Shown here: in pieces, positions 18,346 through 28,262 of the stretch
Position numbering within the stretch: position 1 is the first letter of the stretch
How the letters are laid out: every line of letters begins with the position of its first letter
Notes under the pieces: model-generated
Database searches by the model: none
What the model was told of the DNA's origin: nothing
What the model saw: only the letters and a program-made list of their open reading frames with translations
Source of the DNA: a virus
Virus record (IMG/VR): IMGVR_UViG_3300015360_000024
Span: 64,001-128,000 of that record
DNA: 64,000 bases
Direction: 5' to 3' (one strand)
Translations under genes and position numbers: made by a program

Positions 18346-18361
18346 TACTTTTTCCGGAGTT

Positions 18362-18403
18362 AGCCCGCATGTTTACCTTTTGGTAACTGCGGGCTTTTGT
18401 TTG
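18362..18403 (+). terminator. intrinsic terminator
   Basis: AGCCCGCA...TGCGGGCT stem with inner TTACC/GGTAA, then TTTTGTTTGT. Confidence 0.7.
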
Positions 18404-18415
18404 TCCAGATCTTTA

Positions 18416-18453
18416 CGCAAACATTTGCGCGATGATCGGATCGCCCATAGTAT
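18416..18453 (+). promoter_or_regulatory. promoter whose -35 box overlaps the CGCAA-N4-TTGCG operator
   Basis: CGCAA-ACAT-TTGCG (18416-18429); TTGCGC-N17-TAGTAT. Confidence 0.6.
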
Positions 18454-18461
18454 CCGTCGAT

Positions 18462-19220
18462 ATGGGGGACACTATTCCAGGCAAAAAGCGCTGGACGATC
18501 GAAGAGGAGTCTCTCCTTCGCAAGTTATGGGGTACCCAGCGGGACTCCGAGCTTGCAGACAAGCTGGGGAAGACCGTTAAATCAATCAGGTCGAAGGCGA
18601 CCGAGATGAATGTTCGGGCCGAGAAGGGGCGCCGGACGGTCTGTAGATCTGGTCGAGTCGCCTATCCATGGCAATCCGATGAGGATCTTGTTCTCGTCAA
18701 GAACGTAGGGCACCTGAGCATATTCGAGCTGATGGGACTGCTGCCGCGCAGGAATAGGCTGGCGATCGAGCGCAGGTGCTACGAGCTTGGTTTCTCGCCG
18801 ACGCAGGGGACGCACACGCGTCTTCAGATTGAACGTGAGACCGGCTACAACTGGAGGCAGATCCAGCGTGCTCGTGATGCCCTTGGTCAGGTCTGGAAGC
18901 GGTACGGCACCAGGAAGTACATGATCACTTTCGATCAGGTACAGGACATGATCGAGTACCTCAGGACAGAGACAAGGAAATGGTCTCTGCACTATGGACT
19001 TGATGGCTGCCTGATCTGCGGTGCTTCAGGCGGCGAAGAAAGAACGCGTCACTCAGGTGATGGGCTCTGTAAGCGCTGCTGGGATTTCAGACGGCACGGC
19101 AGGGTTCAGGTCGTCGATGCTCTTAAAAAGGGTAAGATGACGATTCTTACCGAAGAAATCTGGCACGCGTATATTCGCGACGAACCGATGGTTGAACAGG
19201 CCATCGCCGTCTCTGCTTGA
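18462..19220 (+). CDS. protein with tandem Myb/SANT-like HTH repeats and a C-terminal Cys motif
   Basis: RWTIEEESLLRKLW...SELADKLGKTVKSIRSKA and PWQSDEDLVL...RRNRLAIERRCYELG; CLICG...CKRC; start 18462 or 18432. Confidence 0.7.
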   Translation: MGDTIPGKKRWTIEEESLLRKLWGTQRDSELADKLGKTVKSIRSKATEMNVRAEKGRRTVCRSGRVAYPWQSDEDLVLVKNVGHLSIFELMGLLPRRNRLAIERRCYELGFSPTQGTHTRLQIERETGYNWRQIQRARDALGQVWKRYGTRKYMITFDQVQDMIEYLRTETRKWSLHYGLDGCLICGASGGEERTRHSGDGLCKRCWDFRRHGRVQVVDALKKGKMTILTEEIWHAYIRDEPMVEQAIAVSA

Positions 19221-19363: not shown

Positions 19364-19579
19364 ATGCCGATGAGGATCCAGCCCGATACGATGAGGTCGG
19401 AGATCGACCAAGTGATGGCCATACTCGCTGCCTGGAAAGAGCGACTTGAGGCAGGCGTCCCGGGCGACGAGCTTCCGGCGAACGATCTGAACTCGGAGAT
19501 TTTTCAGTTTCAGTTGCGCGGTGAGCTTCAACTTGCCGGTGAGCGTCTAATGGCGCTTGTTGAGGTTATGGAGCCATGA
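19364..19579 (+). CDS. hypothetical protein
   Basis: 71-aa ORF coupled (ATGA) to the ParB-like gene. Confidence 0.55.
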   Translation: MPMRIQPDTMRSEIDQVMAILAAWKERLEAGVPGDELPANDLNSEIFQFQLRGELQLAGERLMALVEVMEP

Positions 19580-20352
19580 AGTCAGTTCCACTGAAAACAG
19601 ACCTGGACATCGCTCGAATTGAGGTGGATCCGAATATTCTCGTGGGCGCCGAATGGAACCCTAACGAGATGGAGCAGGCCGAGTTCACATTGCTTAAGCA
19701 GCAGATGGGCGAGGTCGGGTTCATCGATCCGCCAACCGTTGCCGAGGTTGAAGACGCCAAGGGCAAGAGGTTCTATCGCATCATCGGCGGGCATAATCGC
19801 GTCGCTGCCGCCAAGGAGCTTGGCATCAAGCTGATCCCCGTCGACGTACTTCAGGGCGAGCGCTGGAAGGATGAAGACCTTCAGAAGTTGCAGACCGTTC
19901 GCCTGAACGTCCTGCATGGCAAGACCAACCCAGAGAAGATGGTGGCTCTCTACAACGAGATGGCGACCAAATACGGGGCTGCTGTCACGAGCATGCTCGG
20001 TTACACGACCGACCACGGGCTCAAAAAGATGATCAAGCAGGTCAAGGGAGACCTGGCAAAGGCACTTCCGCCAGATCTCCAGGAGCAGTTCAAGGAGCAG
20101 GCGAAGGAAGCCAAGACGGTCTCCGACCTGGAGAAGATCATCAAGCGCCTAATGGATGAGGGTGGAGATACAGCGAAGCATGGCTTCGTGGTCTTCTCGT
20201 GGGGAGGTAAGGAACACATTTACGTCACGATGTCTGATAAGACGCGCGAGGCGATGAAGCGTATTGTCAGAGCTTCCAGGGACAAGAAGGTCGACGTCAA
20301 CGAGATCATCGAAGAGGCCGTCGTGGATGCTGCGAGAGGCCTCAATAACTAG
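19576..20352 (+). CDS. ParB/Srx N-terminal domain protein
   Basis: EWNPNEM...GFIDPPTV...YRIIGGHNRVAAAKELG. Confidence 0.8.
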   Translation: MKSVPLKTDLDIARIEVDPNILVGAEWNPNEMEQAEFTLLKQQMGEVGFIDPPTVAEVEDAKGKRFYRIIGGHNRVAAAKELGIKLIPVDVLQGERWKDEDLQKLQTVRLNVLHGKTNPEKMVALYNEMATKYGAAVTSMLGYTTDHGLKKMIKQVKGDLAKALPPDLQEQFKEQAKEAKTVSDLEKIIKRLMDEGGDTAKHGFVVFSWGGKEHIYVTMSDKTREAMKRIVRASRDKKVDVNEIIEEAVVDAARGLNN

Positions 20353-20354
20353 CC

Positions 20355-20669
20355 ATGGCGAACAACGAAGACGATACGACTGGGGACCCACCCGGGCTGC
20401 CTGACGATATCGTCGGAGACTCCAGGCGTATTCGTCTAATCAGCATCGATCCCACCACCGGGCACGACAAATCGATGGTTGGTGAGGCGTGGCAGGATCC
20501 GGATGGCAGTCTTCGTGGAACCGGGATCGCCGCCGTGATGCTGTTTGAACCGCTCTCGAATGAGAAGTACCGCCAGGCGTCTGTGGCGAAGGATATTTCT
20601 CCGCTCTCGGTGTTGTACGCGAGACTCGCTCGGAGTTCGTTCATTCGGGTGGAGCTGGTGGAAAAATGA
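20355..20669 (+). CDS. small kinase-associated protein A1
   Basis: Paralog of 22266-22526 (DSRRIR...AWQ..DG.L); ATGA-coupled to the kinase-fold gene. Confidence 0.7.
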   Translation: MANNEDDTTGDPPGLPDDIVGDSRRIRLISIDPTTGHDKSMVGEAWQDPDGSLRGTGIAAVMLFEPLSNEKYRQASVAKDISPLSVLYARLARSSFIRVELVEK

Positions 20670-22282
20670 CCAGAGACATCGACGAGGCCGCGTTTGGAGC
20701 TGGACTGACGAGGGTCGTTAAGAAGGTCAAGCGTGGTGACAAGACGGTAGATCAGGCCTTCCACGTTAAGAAGGCTGCGCCAGACGATAAGTATGCGGCA
20801 AACAAGCCGTCAGAGATGAAGGTACCCAAGAAGGCAGCTGCGCCAGAGCAAGCACAAGAGCCCGAGGTAGTTCCGCCTGCTGTGAATCAGACCGTCGATC
20901 AGCTGGATGACATGACCGGCGAGGTGCCAGAGCAGGCGGCTCCGACGCGGATTATGGTTCGTACGCGCGAGATTCCCTGGGTCAAGAGGAAGACCGGCAA
21001 GGAAGATGAAGATCCAATCCCGAAGGAGCTGCGCCGGAGATTCGACAAGCGGAGCAAGAAGTCGATCTCAGTGATGGCAAATCCGGCGGTGACTGGGTCG
21101 CCGATCATGACGGTCGTGCCGACGGATAGGATTTTCTGGGGTGCGGACGAGCCCGACCTCCTGATGTCGTTGCGTCACGGCGACATCAAGAAAATGCGCC
21201 TGGTTGGCGGCAGTAACGGGTTGATGATCGCGAAGATTGAGTCTCGCGGCGGCGGCTCGTTCTACGGTTTTATGTGGATGGAGTCGTTGCGCTGCTCGCT
21301 CATCAGGCAACTCTGGGGAGGGGTCATCGACTTCGTGACTGAGGATGGGCCTCTGTCCAGGCGGGCTACCTGCGCCTATGAAGTCTCCAAGGCCTGCGGC
21401 CTGGATGATCTGACGCCGCCAACCGTGCATCGAATCGATGACGACGGCGATATCATGGGGATGTTGCCAGACTCTCTGATTGAGCAAGCGAACGAGTGGG
21501 TTTCGCGCACGACCGGCAAGGATCCGCAGACGGTACGAGAGAAGCTTGGCGCACACGCCACCGTTCAGCTCATTCGTGATGAGCCATGGCCGATCGAATC
21601 GGAGAACTGGTTCAGGGACCTGTTTGGTAGGCCTTCGAACGCTCTCAATAACATCTGGGAAGTAATGCCGCCAGATCGTCGGGTCGGCTTCCTGAGAATC
21701 GCAGCCCTGGATTTTGCAATTGGTTGCCTTGACCGTTCCTGGGGTGACATCGCGTTCTCGAACAACCCAAGGCATCCAGTGATGGTGTTCGGCGGCGAGC
21801 TGTCGATTACTTGCCCGAGGACAATCGGTATCGAGTACGCCACCGGAAACTACGGTAGCTACTCCGATGACGTTCCAGGAACGTTGCCTTTGCTCTGGAG
21901 TGAAGCGCTCACGATGCTGGTGGTTCGAGGCGGGGATGAAGAGATCGCCGGCTTCGAGGAGATCGGTATCAACATCGCCACCCGAATGAAGGACAACCGA
22001 GCGGTTGAGTTGGCGAGGTCATTACTGGAGCACAAGGCAACTCCACTGCAGATCTGCGGTGTTCTGAGCCGCATCTGGATGATGATGACCTGGTCAAAGG
22101 ACATCGCAAAGGACCCGTATTTTGCGGCGCGGTATTACGCTGCCGTGGTTTCCGGTGGAGCCAATCAGATTTTCAAGGGCGTGGAAGACTTCGTTAACAA
22201 CACGATGCACCAGGTGCTCGTGAGGGATTTCGATTTCTACACGGAGATGGAGTCAGGAGGTCCCGATGCAAGCGATCTCTGA
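20666..22282 (+). CDS. PI3/4-kinase/HipA-fold protein K1, probable pseudokinase
   Basis: RRATCAYEVSKACGLDDLTPPT and IAALDFAIGCLDRSWGD fit the family; metal-binding N and DxG Asp are missing (VMVFGG). Confidence 0.7.
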   Translation: MTRDIDEAAFGAGLTRVVKKVKRGDKTVDQAFHVKKAAPDDKYAANKPSEMKVPKKAAAPEQAQEPEVVPPAVNQTVDQLDDMTGEVPEQAAPTRIMVRTREIPWVKRKTGKEDEDPIPKELRRRFDKRSKKSISVMANPAVTGSPIMTVVPTDRIFWGADEPDLLMSLRHGDIKKMRLVGGSNGLMIAKIESRGGGSFYGFMWMESLRCSLIRQLWGGVIDFVTEDGPLSRRATCAYEVSKACGLDDLTPPTVHRIDDDGDIMGMLPDSLIEQANEWVSRTTGKDPQTVREKLGAHATVQLIRDEPWPIESENWFRDLFGRPSNALNNIWEVMPPDRRVGFLRIAALDFAIGCLDRSWGDIAFSNNPRHPVMVFGGELSITCPRTIGIEYATGNYGSYSDDVPGTLPLLWSEALTMLVVRGGDEEIAGFEEIGINIATRMKDNRAVELARSLLEHKATPLQICGVLSRIWMMMTWSKDIAKDPYFAARYYAAVVSGGANQIFKGVEDFVNNTMHQVLVRDFDFYTEMESGGPDASDL

Positions 22283-22526
22283 TTCACGGCGAATTCGCAT
22301 CAAGACGGTCAATTTGATCAACGGCGAGCTTGTGCCATCTCAGGCTGCCGATGCTTGGCAAGAGGAAGACGGCAAGCTTGTTCTGAGTGGGCTCTGGGCG
22401 GATCTCGTTCCGTTCGTAGACGAAGATCATGCTTTGGTCGCGGCCGAGCTTGGTGTTTCCCAGCTGGAGTGGCTGCGTATGCGCATCCAGACGTTCCCGT
22501 TTATCGTCATGGAGATCTACGACTAA
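22266..22526 (+). CDS. small kinase-associated protein A2
   Basis: Paralog of A1; TAATG-coupled to K2. Confidence 0.7.
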   Translation: MQAISDSRRIRIKTVNLINGELVPSQAADAWQEEDGKLVLSGLWADLVPFVDEDHALVAAELGVSQLEWLRMRIQTFPFIVMEIYD

Positions 22527-23809
22527 TGTCCGGCAGGAAGTCATGGTTGAATCCAAGCGACCTGCTGAAGCCAGGGCGGCTTGCGGCGTTATTCTCTGAG
22601 GACGACAAAACCGCTGTTCTTCCAGTTCCAGCTCCTGGTTTGCAAGCCAAGATAGAGCCGCCGCCGAATGCGGCGCCGTCCATGGCTGGACCGGCGAATG
22701 CTGGCACAGCTCCGTCTGCTCCAGCAGCTTCAGATCACGTAGCGCACTGGTCACCGATGCCGAAGAGGTCCGAGGTCGCCCACGACGAGCCGAGCCTGGC
22801 TTATCGAACCAGGCCAGACCTGGCGTCGCCAGCAGACCGTCATAAAGAGTTCTATGACGCCTACCACAATAAGGGCGCCACCAATAAGACTCTCAGACAG
22901 CACAAGAAGGGCAGCCTCAACGTTGTCTTCCATGGGCAGATGAACACCGGGCATCAGTACATCGCGAAGCCGCACGAAGGCATCGGTCATCGCGATCTGG
23001 ATACGCTGACACCGGAGACCCTGCAGTCGTTGAAGGCCGATGCGATGGATGCCGGCGCCCGGCATGACGCTACCTACGAGTTGATGTCAGCGATGGGCGC
23101 GCACCATATGGTCGTCCCAGGAGCGACGACGAACATGCACGGTCGTCATCAATTCAAGGGTCCAGATCCGGATGCCGACGATAGTCCAAGCAAGCGCCTG
23201 ACGATGGCCGCGCACCACGCCAGAGAGCAGGCGCACATTCAGGAATTCGTTCCAGGAGCGCTCAATGTTCACGACGCGACACCGGAACAGCTGGACAAGG
23301 TCGATGGTGAACACCGACTTCACGGCGTGGTTTCTCACTTGCTGTTCGGAGCCCAGGATGGCCACAGCGGAAACGTGATGATTCATCCTGCAGGTCATCC
23401 GGTCATGATCGACCACGACATGACATTGGCCACTCCGCAGGCCAGCGTAAACAAAGATGTTTTAGGAAAAGAGGCGATACGGTCAGCGTTTGCGCCTGGG
23501 TCGAAACTTGACTATCAAGCCAAATTACCTAAGGATAGTGCAGGTCAAGTGATTCCAGTCGGCAACAACTTCCCTCCTCGGATGCGCGAGACGCTTCAGC
23601 GTGTCGCCGAGGGGTACTACGGGAAAGGCCACGGGTCTCTTGGTCTTTCTGAAAAAGACCATGCCGCACTTCAGAAGAACGCCCGCGAGCTGCTTCTGTA
23701 CGGCATTGAGGGCACCCTGGATCGTCGCGTCAATATCGATACGGTCATGCGCGACAAGAAGGCTGCGAAGGAAGCGCTCAACAGCCAGATCGACGGAGCG
23801 AAATCCTAG
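22526..23809 (+). CDS. PI3/4-kinase/HipA-fold kinase K2, catalytic residues intact
   Basis: YIAKP (ATP Lys), RHDATYELMSAMG, LFGAQDGHSGNVMI (D-x-H-x-x-N), VMIDHD. Confidence 0.78.
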   Translation: MSGRKSWLNPSDLLKPGRLAALFSEDDKTAVLPVPAPGLQAKIEPPPNAAPSMAGPANAGTAPSAPAASDHVAHWSPMPKRSEVAHDEPSLAYRTRPDLASPADRHKEFYDAYHNKGATNKTLRQHKKGSLNVVFHGQMNTGHQYIAKPHEGIGHRDLDTLTPETLQSLKADAMDAGARHDATYELMSAMGAHHMVVPGATTNMHGRHQFKGPDPDADDSPSKRLTMAAHHAREQAHIQEFVPGALNVHDATPEQLDKVDGEHRLHGVVSHLLFGAQDGHSGNVMIHPAGHPVMIDHDMTLATPQASVNKDVLGKEAIRSAFAPGSKLDYQAKLPKDSAGQVIPVGNNFPPRMRETLQRVAEGYYGKGHGSLGLSEKDHAALQKNARELLLYGIEGTLDRRVNIDTVMRDKKAAKEALNSQIDGAKS

Positions 23810-24114
23810 TGCTGGTCATTTTTGTATTCGATGGAGATCGCGACCGTGTTCGCGAGGTCATCTGGCAAAAGGCAGAGAACCTGGTCGTGTCCAAGCACTG
23901 GTTCCAAGATGGAACCGTCAAGGACGAGGTGCTCGCTGCGGACAACCTCCTTCAGGCACTCGACGAGCGTGGTGGCATATACTCGGTGTGTCACCCGGCC
24001 GAGGTTGGCGATCTGCGCTCAGCGTTCAAGTACCTTGGCAAGTCTGCGGACCTAGTGGAGACTCTGCCAGATGTCGACCTCACCACAGCAATCCAGCCTA
24101 GCGTCGCTCCGTAA
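23809..24114 (+). CDS. small kinase-associated protein A3
   Basis: GTG start overlapping the K2 stop; weak similarity to A2 (IWQKAENLVVS vs AWQEEDGKLVLS). Confidence 0.55.
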   Translation: MLVIFVFDGDRDRVREVIWQKAENLVVSKHWFQDGTVKDEVLAADNLLQALDERGGIYSVCHPAEVGDLRSAFKYLGKSADLVETLPDVDLTTAIQPSVAP

Positions 24115-25420
24115 GGTCTTCGGATCGCTGTCGCAGCGCAAGCCGAAGCCATCCAAACGCGAGGCCGACCTACCGTCATTTGACGATGCCGCTTTGGTGC
24201 CGGAGCAGTTGCCGGCACAGGCGATGCCACACGAGAAGACCGGAATCGTGTTGGTGCCTTCGCGCCGCATCGACGGATCAGACCTAGATGCGCCATGGAA
24301 TGGTTCGGAGCAAACCATCTGGAACTGGCTGCGAACCACGCCAATTGAGTTCATCGAGGAGCGTGTCCTCACCGGCCTGGATGGAACTTTCTGGGCCCGG
24401 TGTAGGAACGACGAAGGCCGGCTGAGGAGCACGCTGCTGCGTTTCGATACGATCGGTCTAGAAGACCTCTACAAGCTCTGGGGTGTGGAGTATGGGATCG
24501 CGGCGGAGAACCACGACATCCTCAGACGCGAGCAGGCGGCGTACGAGATAGCTAAGGGCCTTGGTTGCGAAGACATGGTTCCTCCGTTGGCGGTGCGGAC
24601 GCTCAATCTGGTTCCGCTGATCTCGGATGCTGTTCGAGAGAAGGTGGCCGCGAAGTATGGAATCGACCCGATTCTCGTCGATGAAACCTACGGGGTCGTG
24701 GGAGCGCTACAGCTTGTTCCGTTGAACGCTCGAAGCTTTGTTGACCACTGGGCCATGCTTGGGCCTGACCCGGCCAGTAGGTTCGCCAGGGCGTCGTCGG
24801 CGCTCAGGTACAGCATGTACCGGCTTATCGCGCTGGACTTCGTGTTGGGTACTGGAAATCGCACGATCGCCAACCTGTTGTTCAACGAGTCCACTGGTTC
24901 CCTGGCGGTTGTCGGCTTTGGTGTAACGCTGGCCAATCCGATGACGGCGGCAGACCATTACCTTGCGCAACGGGCACAGGGCTGGGGTCGGCATATTCCT
25001 GGACCACTGGAAGATCCGGCTCCAGGGGCCCCGCCGTCCGGGACTGATTCGATTTACCTCGCGAACGGTTTCACGGACAGGGAACGCGAGGAGTGCCTGG
25101 CTACGTTCAGGCAGATGTCCGAGGCAACCGACGAGAGAACCGTGGTTCTGCTTTGCCAGATCATGGAGGAGATCGGCATCCCTCGTGAGTGCATCGCAGG
25201 CTTCGTGTCGAGACTGGTGTTCCTCCAGGAGGATCCTGACGCAGTTATCGATAACCCGACCGACCACACCCGCAGCATCCTCGTTCCACTACGCCGTGGG
25301 TTCGCCTTCGACGAGGGCCGCAACCTGAAGGTGGTCGAGACGACGAATCAGATCCTAACGGCAGCAACGGCAGAGGGATTCGACTTTACCTCTGCAATGC
25401 AAGCTCAGCCGGCTCAGTAG
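24071..25420 (+). CDS. PI3/4-kinase/HipA-fold protein K3, probable pseudokinase
   Basis: RREQAAYEIAKGLGCEDMVPP and LIALDFVLGTGNRTIANLL (catalytic D replaced by N); AVVGFG (D lost). Confidence 0.72.
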   Translation: MSTSPQQSSLASLRKVFGSLSQRKPKPSKREADLPSFDDAALVPEQLPAQAMPHEKTGIVLVPSRRIDGSDLDAPWNGSEQTIWNWLRTTPIEFIEERVLTGLDGTFWARCRNDEGRLRSTLLRFDTIGLEDLYKLWGVEYGIAAENHDILRREQAAYEIAKGLGCEDMVPPLAVRTLNLVPLISDAVREKVAAKYGIDPILVDETYGVVGALQLVPLNARSFVDHWAMLGPDPASRFARASSALRYSMYRLIALDFVLGTGNRTIANLLFNESTGSLAVVGFGVTLANPMTAADHYLAQRAQGWGRHIPGPLEDPAPGAPPSGTDSIYLANGFTDREREECLATFRQMSEATDERTVVLLCQIMEEIGIPRECIAGFVSRLVFLQEDPDAVIDNPTDHTRSILVPLRRGFAFDEGRNLKVVETTNQILTAATAEGFDFTSAMQAQPAQ

Positions 25421-25423
25421 CCG

Positions 25424-25437
25424 CGCAAACACTTGCG
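25424..25437. promoter_or_regulatory. CGCAA-ACAC-TTGCG operator-like palindrome
   Basis: Just after the K3 stop, upstream of the terminase operon. Confidence 0.6.
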
Positions 25438-26255: not shown

Positions 26256-28262
26256 ATGGCGATTATCGATCTCGGCGGTCGCGTCAGGAGCGAGCAGACC
26301 AAGGAAGAGTTGGTCCGCATGCTCAGTAAGGAGTTCGCGAACCTCTCCGACGACGAGAAACAGGCGGTGATGCTCTGTCTGCGCGAGATGGATGATCCAG
26401 CCTTCAATGAGCTGGAGGAGAAGGGCGAGGTTGTACCAACCCGTATCTATGATGTCCTGACTGATGCCGAGTACATTCGCAAGCCCGTCGACATGGAGAC
26501 GTTCGTCCGGGATCCGTACTACCTCGGCAAGACCTGCGACGTTCTCTATCCAAAGCTGATGGAAGACATGAACGAGCTATTCGCTGGTAACTACCGCGAA
26601 ACCATTCTGTCAGGGTCGATTGGTTGGGGTAAGTCGTTCTTTGCGTCCATTGCAGCCTGTCGAATCATCTACGAGCTGTCGTGTATGCGCGATCCGCATA
26701 AGAGCTTCGGCATCGGTAAGGGCTCTGATATTTCCTTCGTCGTGCTCTCGGTCAAGGAAGACCTCGCCATCAAGGTCGCCTTTGAGAACATCGCGAACAA
26801 GATCAAGGAGAGCGACTACTTCAAGGATAATTTCGCATTCAAGCCGATGAAGAAGGAGATTATTTTCCCAAATCACATCCAGGTGGCAGCGCGTGCGTCA
26901 ACCGATAGCGCTGCCCTTGGTTTGAACGTCTTCTCCGCATGGATCGATGAGTCGAACTTCCTGGCCCCTATGAAGAAGAAGGGATCTATTGAGAGCCGGG
27001 TCGGCAATACAGACAGGGCTTCGTTTCTCTACGACCAGCTCATCCGTCGTATGAAGTCGCGCTTCCAGCGTCACGGGAAGCTGCCAGGTATGATGATCGT
27101 TGTCTCGTCGAAGCAGACCAGGGACGACTTCACCGCCAAGCGCATTCGTGAGTCGAAGGACGACCCGACGGTGTTCGTTCGCGACTACGCCACCTGGCAC
27201 GTCAAGCCGGATGGGATTTTCTCAAAAGAGGTCTTCCACGTTCTGGTTGGTAACGACCTCATTCCTTCGAAGGTGCTCGATCCTGAAGAGGTGCCCATAC
27301 TGCGCGAGAAGCTACAGGAGGGAATGCTCATCATCGAGGTCCCGATCGACTTCAAGAACGACTTCGTCAACAACGTCGAAGACTCGATTCGCGATATCGC
27401 CGGCATTGAGACGGTCTCCATCTCGCCGTTCATCCAGCAGCGCAATAAGATCGTTCCAAACATTGACATCAACCGCTCGCACCCGTTCACTACGGAGGCG
27501 TGGGTGCAGACCGAGGGTGGCCGATTCATCTGGTCGAAGCTTGCCCATCAGATTGAAACACGCGAAGGGGCGTCACTCGTTCGCGAGTGGCAGCCGCTGT
27601 TCCATGCTGGTTCAGCAAGGCACGTCCATATCGACCCGTCGCTGAACGACGACTCGACTGGTTTCGCCGTTGGCTGCGTGACCGGCTATAAGATGGTGTC
27701 TCGCAGAGATCCTGAGACACAGGAACTATTCACGGAGCGCGCACCGGAGATCTGGGTCGATTTCCTTCTGCGTATCAGCCCGCCCGTCGGTGGCGAAATC
27801 GACCAAGCAGGATTGAGGTCGCTCATCTACCAGTTTCAAGCGAAGGGCTTCTCTGTCAGCTTCGTCTCGGCAGATCAGTTCAACTCAGCCGACACCCTGC
27901 AGCAGCTTGCTCGGAAGGGGCTGACGACTGAGCGAATCTCTGTCGACAAGCCGATGGACGCCTACGACATCCTCAAGCAAGCCCTCTATGAGAACCGGCT
28001 GAGCTTCTACGATTACCGACCACTTCTCGATGAGTTGAAGTGGATCCAGAAGGACAACATCCGCAACAAGGTCGACCACCCAGCTGGTAAATCGAAGGAT
28101 GTGGCCGACGCCTTGGCAGGCATCGTCTTCACGTTGACGACGATGTATCACGGCGCCCCGATGGGGGTGTACAAGGGGTTGTCGCAGCACTCAGATCCAC
28201 AGCAAGAGGAACAGCGCGAGATTGTGGACGACGATGGACCACTGCCTTTCTTGATAGGATGA
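26256..28262 (+). CDS. terminase large subunit
   Basis: ILSGSIGWGKS Walker A, AWIDES Walker B, HVHIDPS and KVDHPAGKSKDVADALAG nuclease motifs. Confidence 0.93.
   Translation: MAIIDLGGRVRSEQTKEELVRMLSKEFANLSDDEKQAVMLCLREMDDPAFNELEEKGEVVPTRIYDVLTDAEYIRKPVDMETFVRDPYYLGKTCDVLYPKLMEDMNELFAGNYRETILSGSIGWGKSFFASIAACRIIYELSCMRDPHKSFGIGKGSDISFVVLSVKEDLAIKVAFENIANKIKESDYFKDNFAFKPMKKEIIFPNHIQVAARASTDSAALGLNVFSAWIDESNFLAPMKKKGSIESRVGNTDRASFLYDQLIRRMKSRFQRHGKLPGMMIVVSSKQTRDDFTAKRIRESKDDPTVFVRDYATWHVKPDGIFSKEVFHVLVGNDLIPSKVLDPEEVPILREKLQEGMLIIEVPIDFKNDFVNNVEDSIRDIAGIETVSISPFIQQRNKIVPNIDINRSHPFTTEAWVQTEGGRFIWSKLAHQIETREGASLVREWQPLFHAGSARHVHIDPSLNDDSTGFAVGCVTGYKMVSRRDPETQELFTERAPEIWVDFLLRISPPVGGEIDQAGLRSLIYQFQAKGFSVSFVSADQFNSADTLQQLARKGLTTERISVDKPMDAYDILKQALYENRLSFYDYRPLLDELKWIQKDNIRNKVDHPAGKSKDVADALAGIVFTLTTMYHGAPMGVYKGLSQHSDPQQEEQREIVDDDGPLPFLIG

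Follow-up and report, generated by a model that had tools for sequence, protein, structure and literature searches.

The window analysed here, a 64,000-nucleotide stretch of DNA corresponding to bases 64001-128000 of a 193,958-bp IMG/VR virus record (IMGVR_UViG_3300015360_000024, estimated to be 91% complete), carries an operon of six overlapping genes, A1-K1-A2-K2-A3-K3, in which three small proteins alternate with three proteins that appear to share a kinase fold resembling that of the type II phosphatidylinositol 4-kinases (PI4KII). One of these, K2, retains a full catalytic set and is probably an active kinase; K3 has the residues of a pseudokinase, and K1 has lost the canonical residues while keeping an invariant site of its own. 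In our working model, to which we assign a probability of roughly 55%, K2 would be regulated or scaffolded by its pseudokinase paralogues and would act on host targets. An earlier note on this DNA, made from the letters alone, had proposed three coupled A-K pairs between 20355 and 25420, and all six open reading frames (ORFs, called with translation table 11) are found there:

20355..20669, + strand: A1, 104 amino acids; no known family; paralogue of A2
20666..22282, + strand: K1, 538 amino acids; a basic, conserved N-terminal region followed by a kinase-fold domain paralogous to that of K3
22266..22526, + strand: A2, 86 amino acids; paralogue of A1
22526..23809, + strand: K2, 427 amino acids; a disordered N-terminus followed by a type II PI4K-like kinase domain
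23809..24114, + strand: A3, 101 amino acids; no detectable similarity to A1 or A2
24071..25420, + strand: K3, 449 amino acids; type II PI4K-like fold, predicted pseudokinase

These genes form a real operon under purifying selection. All junctions from A1 to K3 overlap, by 1 to 44 nt, and no convincing or strong terminator was found inside the A1-K3 block. For K2 the best and most likely start is at 22526, where an ATG overlaps the stop codon of A2; homologues align from that residue. The long K3 start, and with it the 44-nt overlap between A3 and K3, is real as well, since conservation among 35 homologues is at least 90% at K3 residues 13-25. The gene order ParB-A1-K1-A2-K2-A3-K3-TerS-TerL, which runs from a ParB-like nuclease gene to the small and large terminase subunits, is the same in 12 of 12 distinct related contigs (L002, L003, L005, L006, L008-L014 and one further contig). 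Contigs whose K2 shares no more than 37-40% identity with that of the window keep it too, and the six module genes are never apart among the 12 contigs. A search of the gene neighbourhood in related phages, which the earlier note had suggested, returned the same array throughout.

We identified 35 K2-like, 39 K3-like and 32 K1-like proteins in homologue searches, nearly all of them unnamed and metagenomic. The AlphaFold model of K2 (31 sequences; predicted local distance difference test score, pLDDT, of 87) best matches PI4KII alpha/beta, with Z 16.1 and a root-mean-square deviation (rmsd) of 3.5 Å over 248 residues, followed by Fam20A/C (Z 12-13.5), actin-fragmin kinase (11.6) and the class I/III phosphatidylinositol 3-kinases (PI3K; about 10). 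In Foldseek, all 50 listed of the 329 matches with E ≤ 0.001 are kinases or kinase-like proteins. The Pfam family PI3_PI4_kinase (PF00454) reaches K2 with an E of 0.033 and 14.6 bits, below its gathering score of 27.1, and precomputed matches to it exist on some K2 and K3 homologues; a sequence-profile search of the PDB with K2 returned only a non-significant match, to the catalytic loop of PI4KIIIbeta.

The three K2 motifs singled out earlier as the lysine that anchors adenosine triphosphate (ATP), the catalytic loop and the metal ligand are all present and invariant. The beta3 Lys, K148 (nt 22967), is found in 31 of 31 homologues; in the catalytic loop D278 (nt 23357) and N283 are found in all 31 and H280 in 30; and the DFG-like metal site I295-D296-H-D298, with D296 at nt 23411, is likewise kept in all 31. 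The glycine loop is nearly as constant (G129 in 28/31, S130 and N132 each in 30/31). Because K148, D278, N283 and D296 are unchanged across the family, K2 is probably an active kinase, and we infer that it is an ATP-dependent phosphotransferase. Judged from CtkA, HipA, actin-fragmin kinase and Fam20C as analogues, its substrate is more likely to be a protein or small molecule than phosphatidylinositol. Phosphatidylinositol is absent from most bacteria, and CtkA, HipA/HipT and actin-fragmin kinase are protein kinases despite their lipid-kinase-like fold, which lends support to a protein substrate. K2 is also rich in invariant or near-invariant histidines (H193, H194, H263, H266, H271, H280, H287, H291 and H297), which may form an extra metal site.

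The K3 model (AlphaFold, 35 sequences; pLDDT 79) matches PI4KII best, with Z 20.4 and an rmsd of 3.2 Å over 264 residues. Its next matches are Fam20 (about 14), actin-fragmin kinase and CtkA (13.4), and HipT and HipA (about 10), and PF00454 scores 17.4 bits on K3 (E 0.0046) against the gathering score of 27.1. As had been read from the letters, the sequences GNRTIAN and VGFG stand where the catalytic loop and metal site are expected. Across the 35 sequences, the catalytic-Asp position (263) is N in 22, D in five, E in three, S in two and R, C or L in the others; five residues further on, D is found in 23, S in eight and N in four; and the DFG-Asp position (282) is G in 25, D in five, N in two, Y in two and S in one. 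A catalytic-base position that tolerates so many residues points to loss of the active site. Four deep-branching K3 proteins (P0066, P0068, P0069 and P0072) have retained both Asp residues, as in a Y-D-F-G motif, and for this reason K3 is best read as a pseudokinase that arose within this clade. The glycine loop (G102 and G105 in 34/35) and the helix Glu (E159 in 35/35) have been kept, so nucleotide binding may be retained. At the beta3 Lys position (124), R occurs in 24 sequences and K in nine, so that 33 of the 35 have one or the other.

K1 is connected to this fold through K3, to which it is clearly related (hhalign 99.7%, E 6e-26 over 364 columns; BLASTP E 4e-16), and can thus be expected to share its kinase fold. 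The Pfam search gave no PF00454 match for K1, and the PDB sequence-profile search gave only non-significant matches, to the Fam20A catalytic loop. The LDRSWGD and VFGG sequences noticed earlier were confirmed. The glycine-loop residue G185 is present in 30 of 31 homologues, a Trp (W204) occupies the beta3 Lys position inferred from strand register in 30 of 31, and the DFG-Asp position is a Gly (G376) in all 31. What K1 has is a site of its own, D356-R357-S358-x-G360-D361, in which D356 and R357 occur in 31/31 and D361, an Asp where the catalytic loop expects Asn, in 30/31; two residues past G376 lies E378 (31/31), aligned with the invariant D298 of K2. This site is invariant in 30-31 of the 31 homologues, down to 36% identity. 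Lacking the Lys and the DFG Asp, yet possessing an invariant site, K1 is taken to be a pseudokinase that binds a ligand or else an atypical enzyme. The suggestion that K1 and K3 are inactive although full length accordingly holds in that the canonical residues are missing from both, while the inactivity of K1 is uncertain, given its invariant D356, R357, D361 and E378. The K1 and K3 genes are intact in all loci; one apparent pseudogene, a split K1 in locus L004, turned out to be a run of Ns from scaffolding.

The main rival to our model takes its starting point from this site. It holds that K1 itself, and possibly K3, is an atypical kinase-fold enzyme, in which case the operon would encode three activities rather than a kinase and two regulators. 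Kinase folds with unusual chemistry have precedents in AMPylation by SelO, glutamylation by SidJ and the inverted ATP binding of Fam20A. The invariance of the K1 site at such low identity, the alignment of E378 with D298 of K2 and the retained glycine loop of K3 are all consistent with such enzymes, as is the finding that K1 is the most conserved of the three K proteins. The range of residues at the K3 catalytic-Asp position, however, is unexpected for an active site, K1 has Trp at the inferred Lys position and Gly at the metal-binding Asp, and the Pfam, NCBIfam and PDB profile searches revealed no related enzyme with the K1 set of motifs. On balance we consider this rival improbable.

The three K proteins were said to share a helix and a loop, and these are indeed present: R-x-x-A-x-Y-E...G...V-x-P and G-x-x-[DN]-x4-[ND] occur in all three and are in register by hhalign. 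K2 has no similarity to K1 or K3 by BLASTP, and the profile comparison of K2 with K3 is weak (hhalign 30%, E 5.5e-4), but in it the catalytic loop and the R-x-x-A-x-Y-E helix line up. Membership of all three in the structural group of PI3/4-kinases, CtkA and HipA, as first proposed, is borne out for K2 and K3 by models and fold searches and for K1 by its homology to K3. Each K protein begins with a different conserved N-terminal peptide, which is followed by a disordered linker.

Among the small proteins, the A1 and A2 families are related (hhalign 98.6%, E 5e-16), A3 has no detectable relationship to either, and no third copy of A1/A2 was found in the whole phage record. None of the three has a match in Pfam, PHROGs, NCBIfam or PADLOC, and the ESM Atlas gave no usable match for A1 or A3; for all six proteins, PHROGs, PADLOC and NCBIfam returned nothing meaningful. 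Within A3, mean pairwise identity is 0.40 in the N-terminal part, which is variable, and 0.78 in a C-terminal segment around DLRSAFKYLGK, which is conserved.

Purifying selection acts on each of the six genes. By the Nei-Gojobori method, comparing the window with L013, L014 and L002, the ratio of nonsynonymous to synonymous substitution rates (dN/dS) is 0.063-0.080 for K1 and 0.065-0.137 for K3, the upper values (0.08 and 0.14) being those against the more distant L002; the three closest comparisons give 0.063-0.071 for K1, 0.065-0.068 for K3 and 0.04-0.17 for the A genes. It is 0.111-0.145 for K2, 0.042-0.098 for A1, 0.039-0.261 for A2, 0.117-0.173 for A3 and 0.014-0.086 for TerL. The degenerate K1 and K3 are thus more constrained than K2, and the relaxed selection that the earlier note had named as evidence against functional pseudokinases is not seen, dN/dS being about 0.07 and not near 1.

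The operon does not evolve as a single unit. K2 and the first two-thirds of A3 behave as an exchangeable mosaic block (22528 to about 24002, + strand), with 56-83% nucleotide identity to L013:2251-3715 between flanks that are mostly 87-99% identical, above 90% for the most part and with a single interval at 83%. Synonymous divergence (dS) is 1.1 for K2 versus 0.25 for K1 and 0.36 for K3. This sharply bounded divergent block between far more similar flanks suggests that alleles of the active kinase have been exchanged between close relatives. We also measured co-variation by partial Mantel tests over 10 loci after removal of backbone divergence (ParB, TerS), an approach that overstates significance on related loci. 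Co-variation is strongest between A2 and K3 (r 0.74, permutation p 0.0002) and between K2 and A3 (r 0.71, p 0.0006); within each proposed "cassette" it is weak (A1-K1 0.18, A2-K2 0.29, A3-K3 0.34). We treat the strong pairs as leads rather than proof. A threefold duplication of one A-K cassette does not fit the pattern of paralogy (A1 with A2, but K1 with K3) or this co-variation, and we rejected it. Of the "triplicated" array described earlier there remain two pairs of paralogues, A1/A2 and K1/K3, beside an A3 with no detectable relationship to A1 and A2 and a K2 related to K1 and K3 only remotely, at the level of fold.

In the working model, K2 would use ATP to phosphorylate a protein or small-molecule target, and K1 and K3, as non-catalytic or atypical nucleotide-binding paralogues, would scaffold or regulate it, much as Fam20A does for Fam20C. 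A1, A2 and A3 would serve as adaptors. K2 and the N-terminal part of A3 would make up an exchangeable, host-facing cassette on a conserved chassis of K1, K3, A1 and A2. Several observations weigh against this model. K2 is only a remote relative of K1 and K3 (hhalign 30% with K3 and 0.4% with K1), so that common descent of the three rests on fold. The Lys positions in K1 and K3 were assigned from the register of secondary-structure strands, not from residue-level superposition. The K1 site is strictly invariant, which speaks for ligand binding or catalysis rather than for a dead scaffold. The K2-A3 link, beyond the inflated significance of the test, may reflect plain linkage of adjacent genes. 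Finally, the K proteins are stand-alone, with no MuF or portal domain by Pfam or PHROGs.

We further propose, with less confidence than for the core of the model, that the six proteins would be made late and carried with the virion into the next host cell. This is plausible because the module lies before TerS, TerL and the portal gene, and because PI4KII-like domains occur in or near phage head proteins. A T4-type portal is encoded a few kb downstream in orthologous loci. In BFVD, K3 matches tailed-virus proteins with PI3K/PI4K domains as well as large fusion proteins whose annotations name head morphogenesis (MuF), HK97-type portal and ADP-ribosyltransferase proteins. The gene for P0156 (885 amino acids, with PF00454), a weak match of the K3 profile, comes straight after the portal gene in a lambda-like head module, and the phage homologues among such weak matches fall in phrog_3162, a family of unknown function. 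At L019:2777-8658, in an unrelated lambda-like head module, the 885-amino-acid protein with the PI3/PI4-kinase domain follows a 1075-amino-acid portal with extra pyridine-nucleotide oxidoreductase-like Pfam matches. The most elaborate form of our proposal is a multi-subunit phage kinase holoenzyme, with a pseudokinase chassis and a swappable cassette of K2 and the N-part of A3 that supplies catalysis and specificity; it would be produced along with the head genes and enter the next host cell to phosphorylate host targets. We offer it tentatively.

The same surroundings could be read as a sign that the six proteins are mainly structural or associated with packaging (as internal head, ejection or packaging accessory proteins), with phosphotransfer secondary. 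The module is flanked by the ParB-like nuclease on one side and TerS/TerL on the other, the portal follows a few kb on, the same hairpin motif precedes both the module block and the terminase block, and other phages have PI4KII-like domains in MuF and portal fusions and beside a portal gene. The family-wide invariance of the K2 catalytic residues points instead to selection for an enzyme, and neither Pfam nor PHROGs reveals fusion to, or homology with, a known virion protein, which together make a mainly structural role unlikely.

It is more doubtful still that the K proteins act independently and without a complex, as host-directed effectors or as decoys for HipA-type or other kinase-based defences, each with its own small chaperone or inhibitor after the HipS-HipT precedent of a roughly 100-amino-acid partner encoded beside its kinase: the translational coupling of each K gene to small ORFs, the distinct N-terminal peptide and disordered linker of each K protein and the presence of HipT and HipA among the K3 structural matches (Z about 10) would suit it, but the HipA_C and HipA_2 Pfam families and PADLOC have no match among the six proteins, no helix-turn-helix (antitoxin) gene is paired with the K genes and the locus has no toxin-antitoxin organisation, the six genes stay together in all 12 contigs, co-variation does not follow the A(n)-K(n) pairs, and, in contrast to mobile toxin-antitoxin systems, the module did not turn up in 185,579 species genomes.

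The module is a property of one narrow, uncultivated and apparently non-lysogenic phage clade of microbial mats with genomes of about 195-200 kb. A search of sequencing runs found near-identical DNA in microbial-mat metagenome runs only, with no RNA datasets among them. Related virus records span 175-200 kb, and one of them, at 197 kb, is rated 100% complete. The TerL of the window shows distant kinship (33-37% identity) to terminases of Vibrio siphophages and actinophages. That the module is confined to a single narrow clade follows from the scarcity of relatives: searches of 50,697 GenBank phage records gave no match to the array (blastn) or to K2 and K3 (tblastn), a K1-profile scan of the 185,579 species genomes found no relative, and the K3 profile, run with HMMER against 1.84 billion representative proteins, yielded only 56 matches, which comprise K3-like and K1-like proteins and a few weak matches with PF00454 above threshold. 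A K1 homologue, P0104, is deposited under a Planctomycetota metagenome-assembled genome on a 33-kb contig; this may reflect mis-binning of a phage contig or point to the host. We searched the literature for PI3/PI4 kinases and pseudokinases of phages and for atypical kinases that are packaged, and no account of this module came to light, in keeping with the earlier remark that the architecture was not a recognised one.

The module belongs to a larger conserved block and, as had been proposed, the terminase follows it directly. Its surroundings in the window are:

18416..18429, no strand: palindrome CGCAAACATTTGCG; a terminator-like hairpin (about 18352-18395) lies just before it, and the block's first gene starts 3 nt after it, at 18432
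18432..19220, + strand: gene that opens the conserved block, with a weak match to phrog_323 (D5-like transcriptional regulators); syntenic in every locus whose flank reaches it
19576..20352, + strand: ParB-like nuclease (phrog_26387, E 2e-51; weak Pfam match to ParB_N); adjoins A1 upstream
25424..25437, no strand: palindrome CGCAAACACTTGCG, 3 nt past the K3 stop codon
25507..26253, + strand: probable small terminase subunit (TerS), assigned by position only
26256..28262, + strand: large terminase subunit (TerL), 668 amino acids; tblastn to phage TerL genes at E 1e-97, and Pfam MJ0330_N on its orthologues

Wherever the fetched flank reaches that far, the regulator-like gene and a 71-amino-acid ORF also precede ParB. 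The block's first gene encodes 262 amino acids in the window, but its orthologue in L008 (1836-3785) is a 649-amino-acid ORF, which may represent a fusion or an upstream extension. TerL is likewise longer in some relatives, with 1088-1364 amino acids in L005:11667-14933, L008:11161-15255 and L010:10664-14308 against 668 in the window; the L005 protein has intein-splicing and LAGLIDADG domains, and the TerL of the window is without an intein.

The palindrome CGCAA-N4-TTGCG occurs four times in the window against 0.07 expected, at 2241, 18416, 25424 and 53014. It had been taken for an operator that brackets the block. The sites at 18416 and 25424 are real, but three of the four copies are GCGCAA-N4-TTGCGC hairpins that start 3-4 nt past a stop codon, and the remaining copy lies just past a terminator-like hairpin. 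These positions are better explained by an RNA hairpin at gene ends than by an operator. This recurrent hairpin may be a transcript 3′-end or processing element of the phage.

The ORF at 240-848, pointed out earlier as a Cys-phosphatase, has a dual-specificity phosphatase domain (DSPc, E 1e-21) and is conserved in 5 of 5 related records, 21-26 kb from the module. We rejected it as a dedicated "eraser" for the module: the genomes are syntenic throughout, so its conservation at this distance allows no specific link to be claimed.

Few phage kinases have been studied, T7 gp0.7 being the classic case, and allosteric regulation between kinases and pseudokinases is known from eukaryotes (Fam20A/C, JAK, HER3). 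To our knowledge, neither a pseudokinase of a bacterial virus nor, in a phage, a kinase complex regulated by a pseudokinase has been described. In this case an entire phage clade has retained, under strong purifying selection, an active-type kinase, two degenerate paralogues and three small proteins, and close relatives swap the active member in the manner of a specificity cassette. This offers a cloneable system for asking whether kinase-pseudokinase allostery also operates in phage-host conflicts. The module may also provide a route into the role of the large, unstudied family of PI4KII-like kinases of phage head modules and, given the deep-branching K3 proteins with both Asp residues, a case for how a pseudokinase arises from an active enzyme. 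If the holoenzyme proposal were true, it would represent modular, recombination-driven retargeting of a phage kinase complex, which as far as we know would be new for phages.

Among known systems, the type II PI4Ks (PI4KII alpha/beta; PDB 4pla, 4hnd, 4wtv and 9hhm; PF00454) are the closest in structure to K2 and K3, clearly above the next family. They share the motifs G-x-x-G-x-[FY], D-[RG]-x-x-x-N and I-D-x-[GD] in register, as judged from Pfam profile positions, hhalign and an alignment with PI4KIIIbeta. Sequence identity to them is only 9-14%, however, K1 and K3 miss the catalytic residues, and the K proteins belong to a bacterial virus, for which phosphatidylinositol is an unlikely substrate. 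Fam20A and Fam20C form the second-best structural family for K2 and K3 (Z 12-15) and supply the closest functional analogy, in that the pseudokinase Fam20A binds and activates Fam20C, an active kinase of the same fold. The Fam20 proteins nevertheless act in the eukaryotic secretory pathway, have no significant sequence relationship to the K proteins and work as a pair, unlike a module with two degenerate paralogues and three small proteins.

CtkA of H. pylori, HipA and HipT-HipS, and actin-fragmin kinase lie in the same structural neighbourhood of K2 and K3 (Z 10-13), but the module, unlike the HipA and CtkA systems, is absent from the bacterial genomes searched. The PI3/4K proteins of phage head modules, with their MuF, portal and ADP-ribosyltransferase fusions, resemble K3 in structure by BFVD; K1-K3 differ from them as a stand-alone set of three with small partners, two of the set being degenerate, and with no PHROG match. 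The kinase family of polyvalent proteins is a different one, a Ser/Thr kinase that lacks the C-lobe (Iyer et al. 2017, PMC5512222). Vaccinia virus B12 is a eukaryotic-virus protein of the canonical eukaryotic protein kinase (ePK) family, unrelated to the K proteins in sequence and without small partner genes, yet as a viral pseudokinase that works by binding a kinase (PMC9175622) it resembles the role proposed here for K1 and K3.

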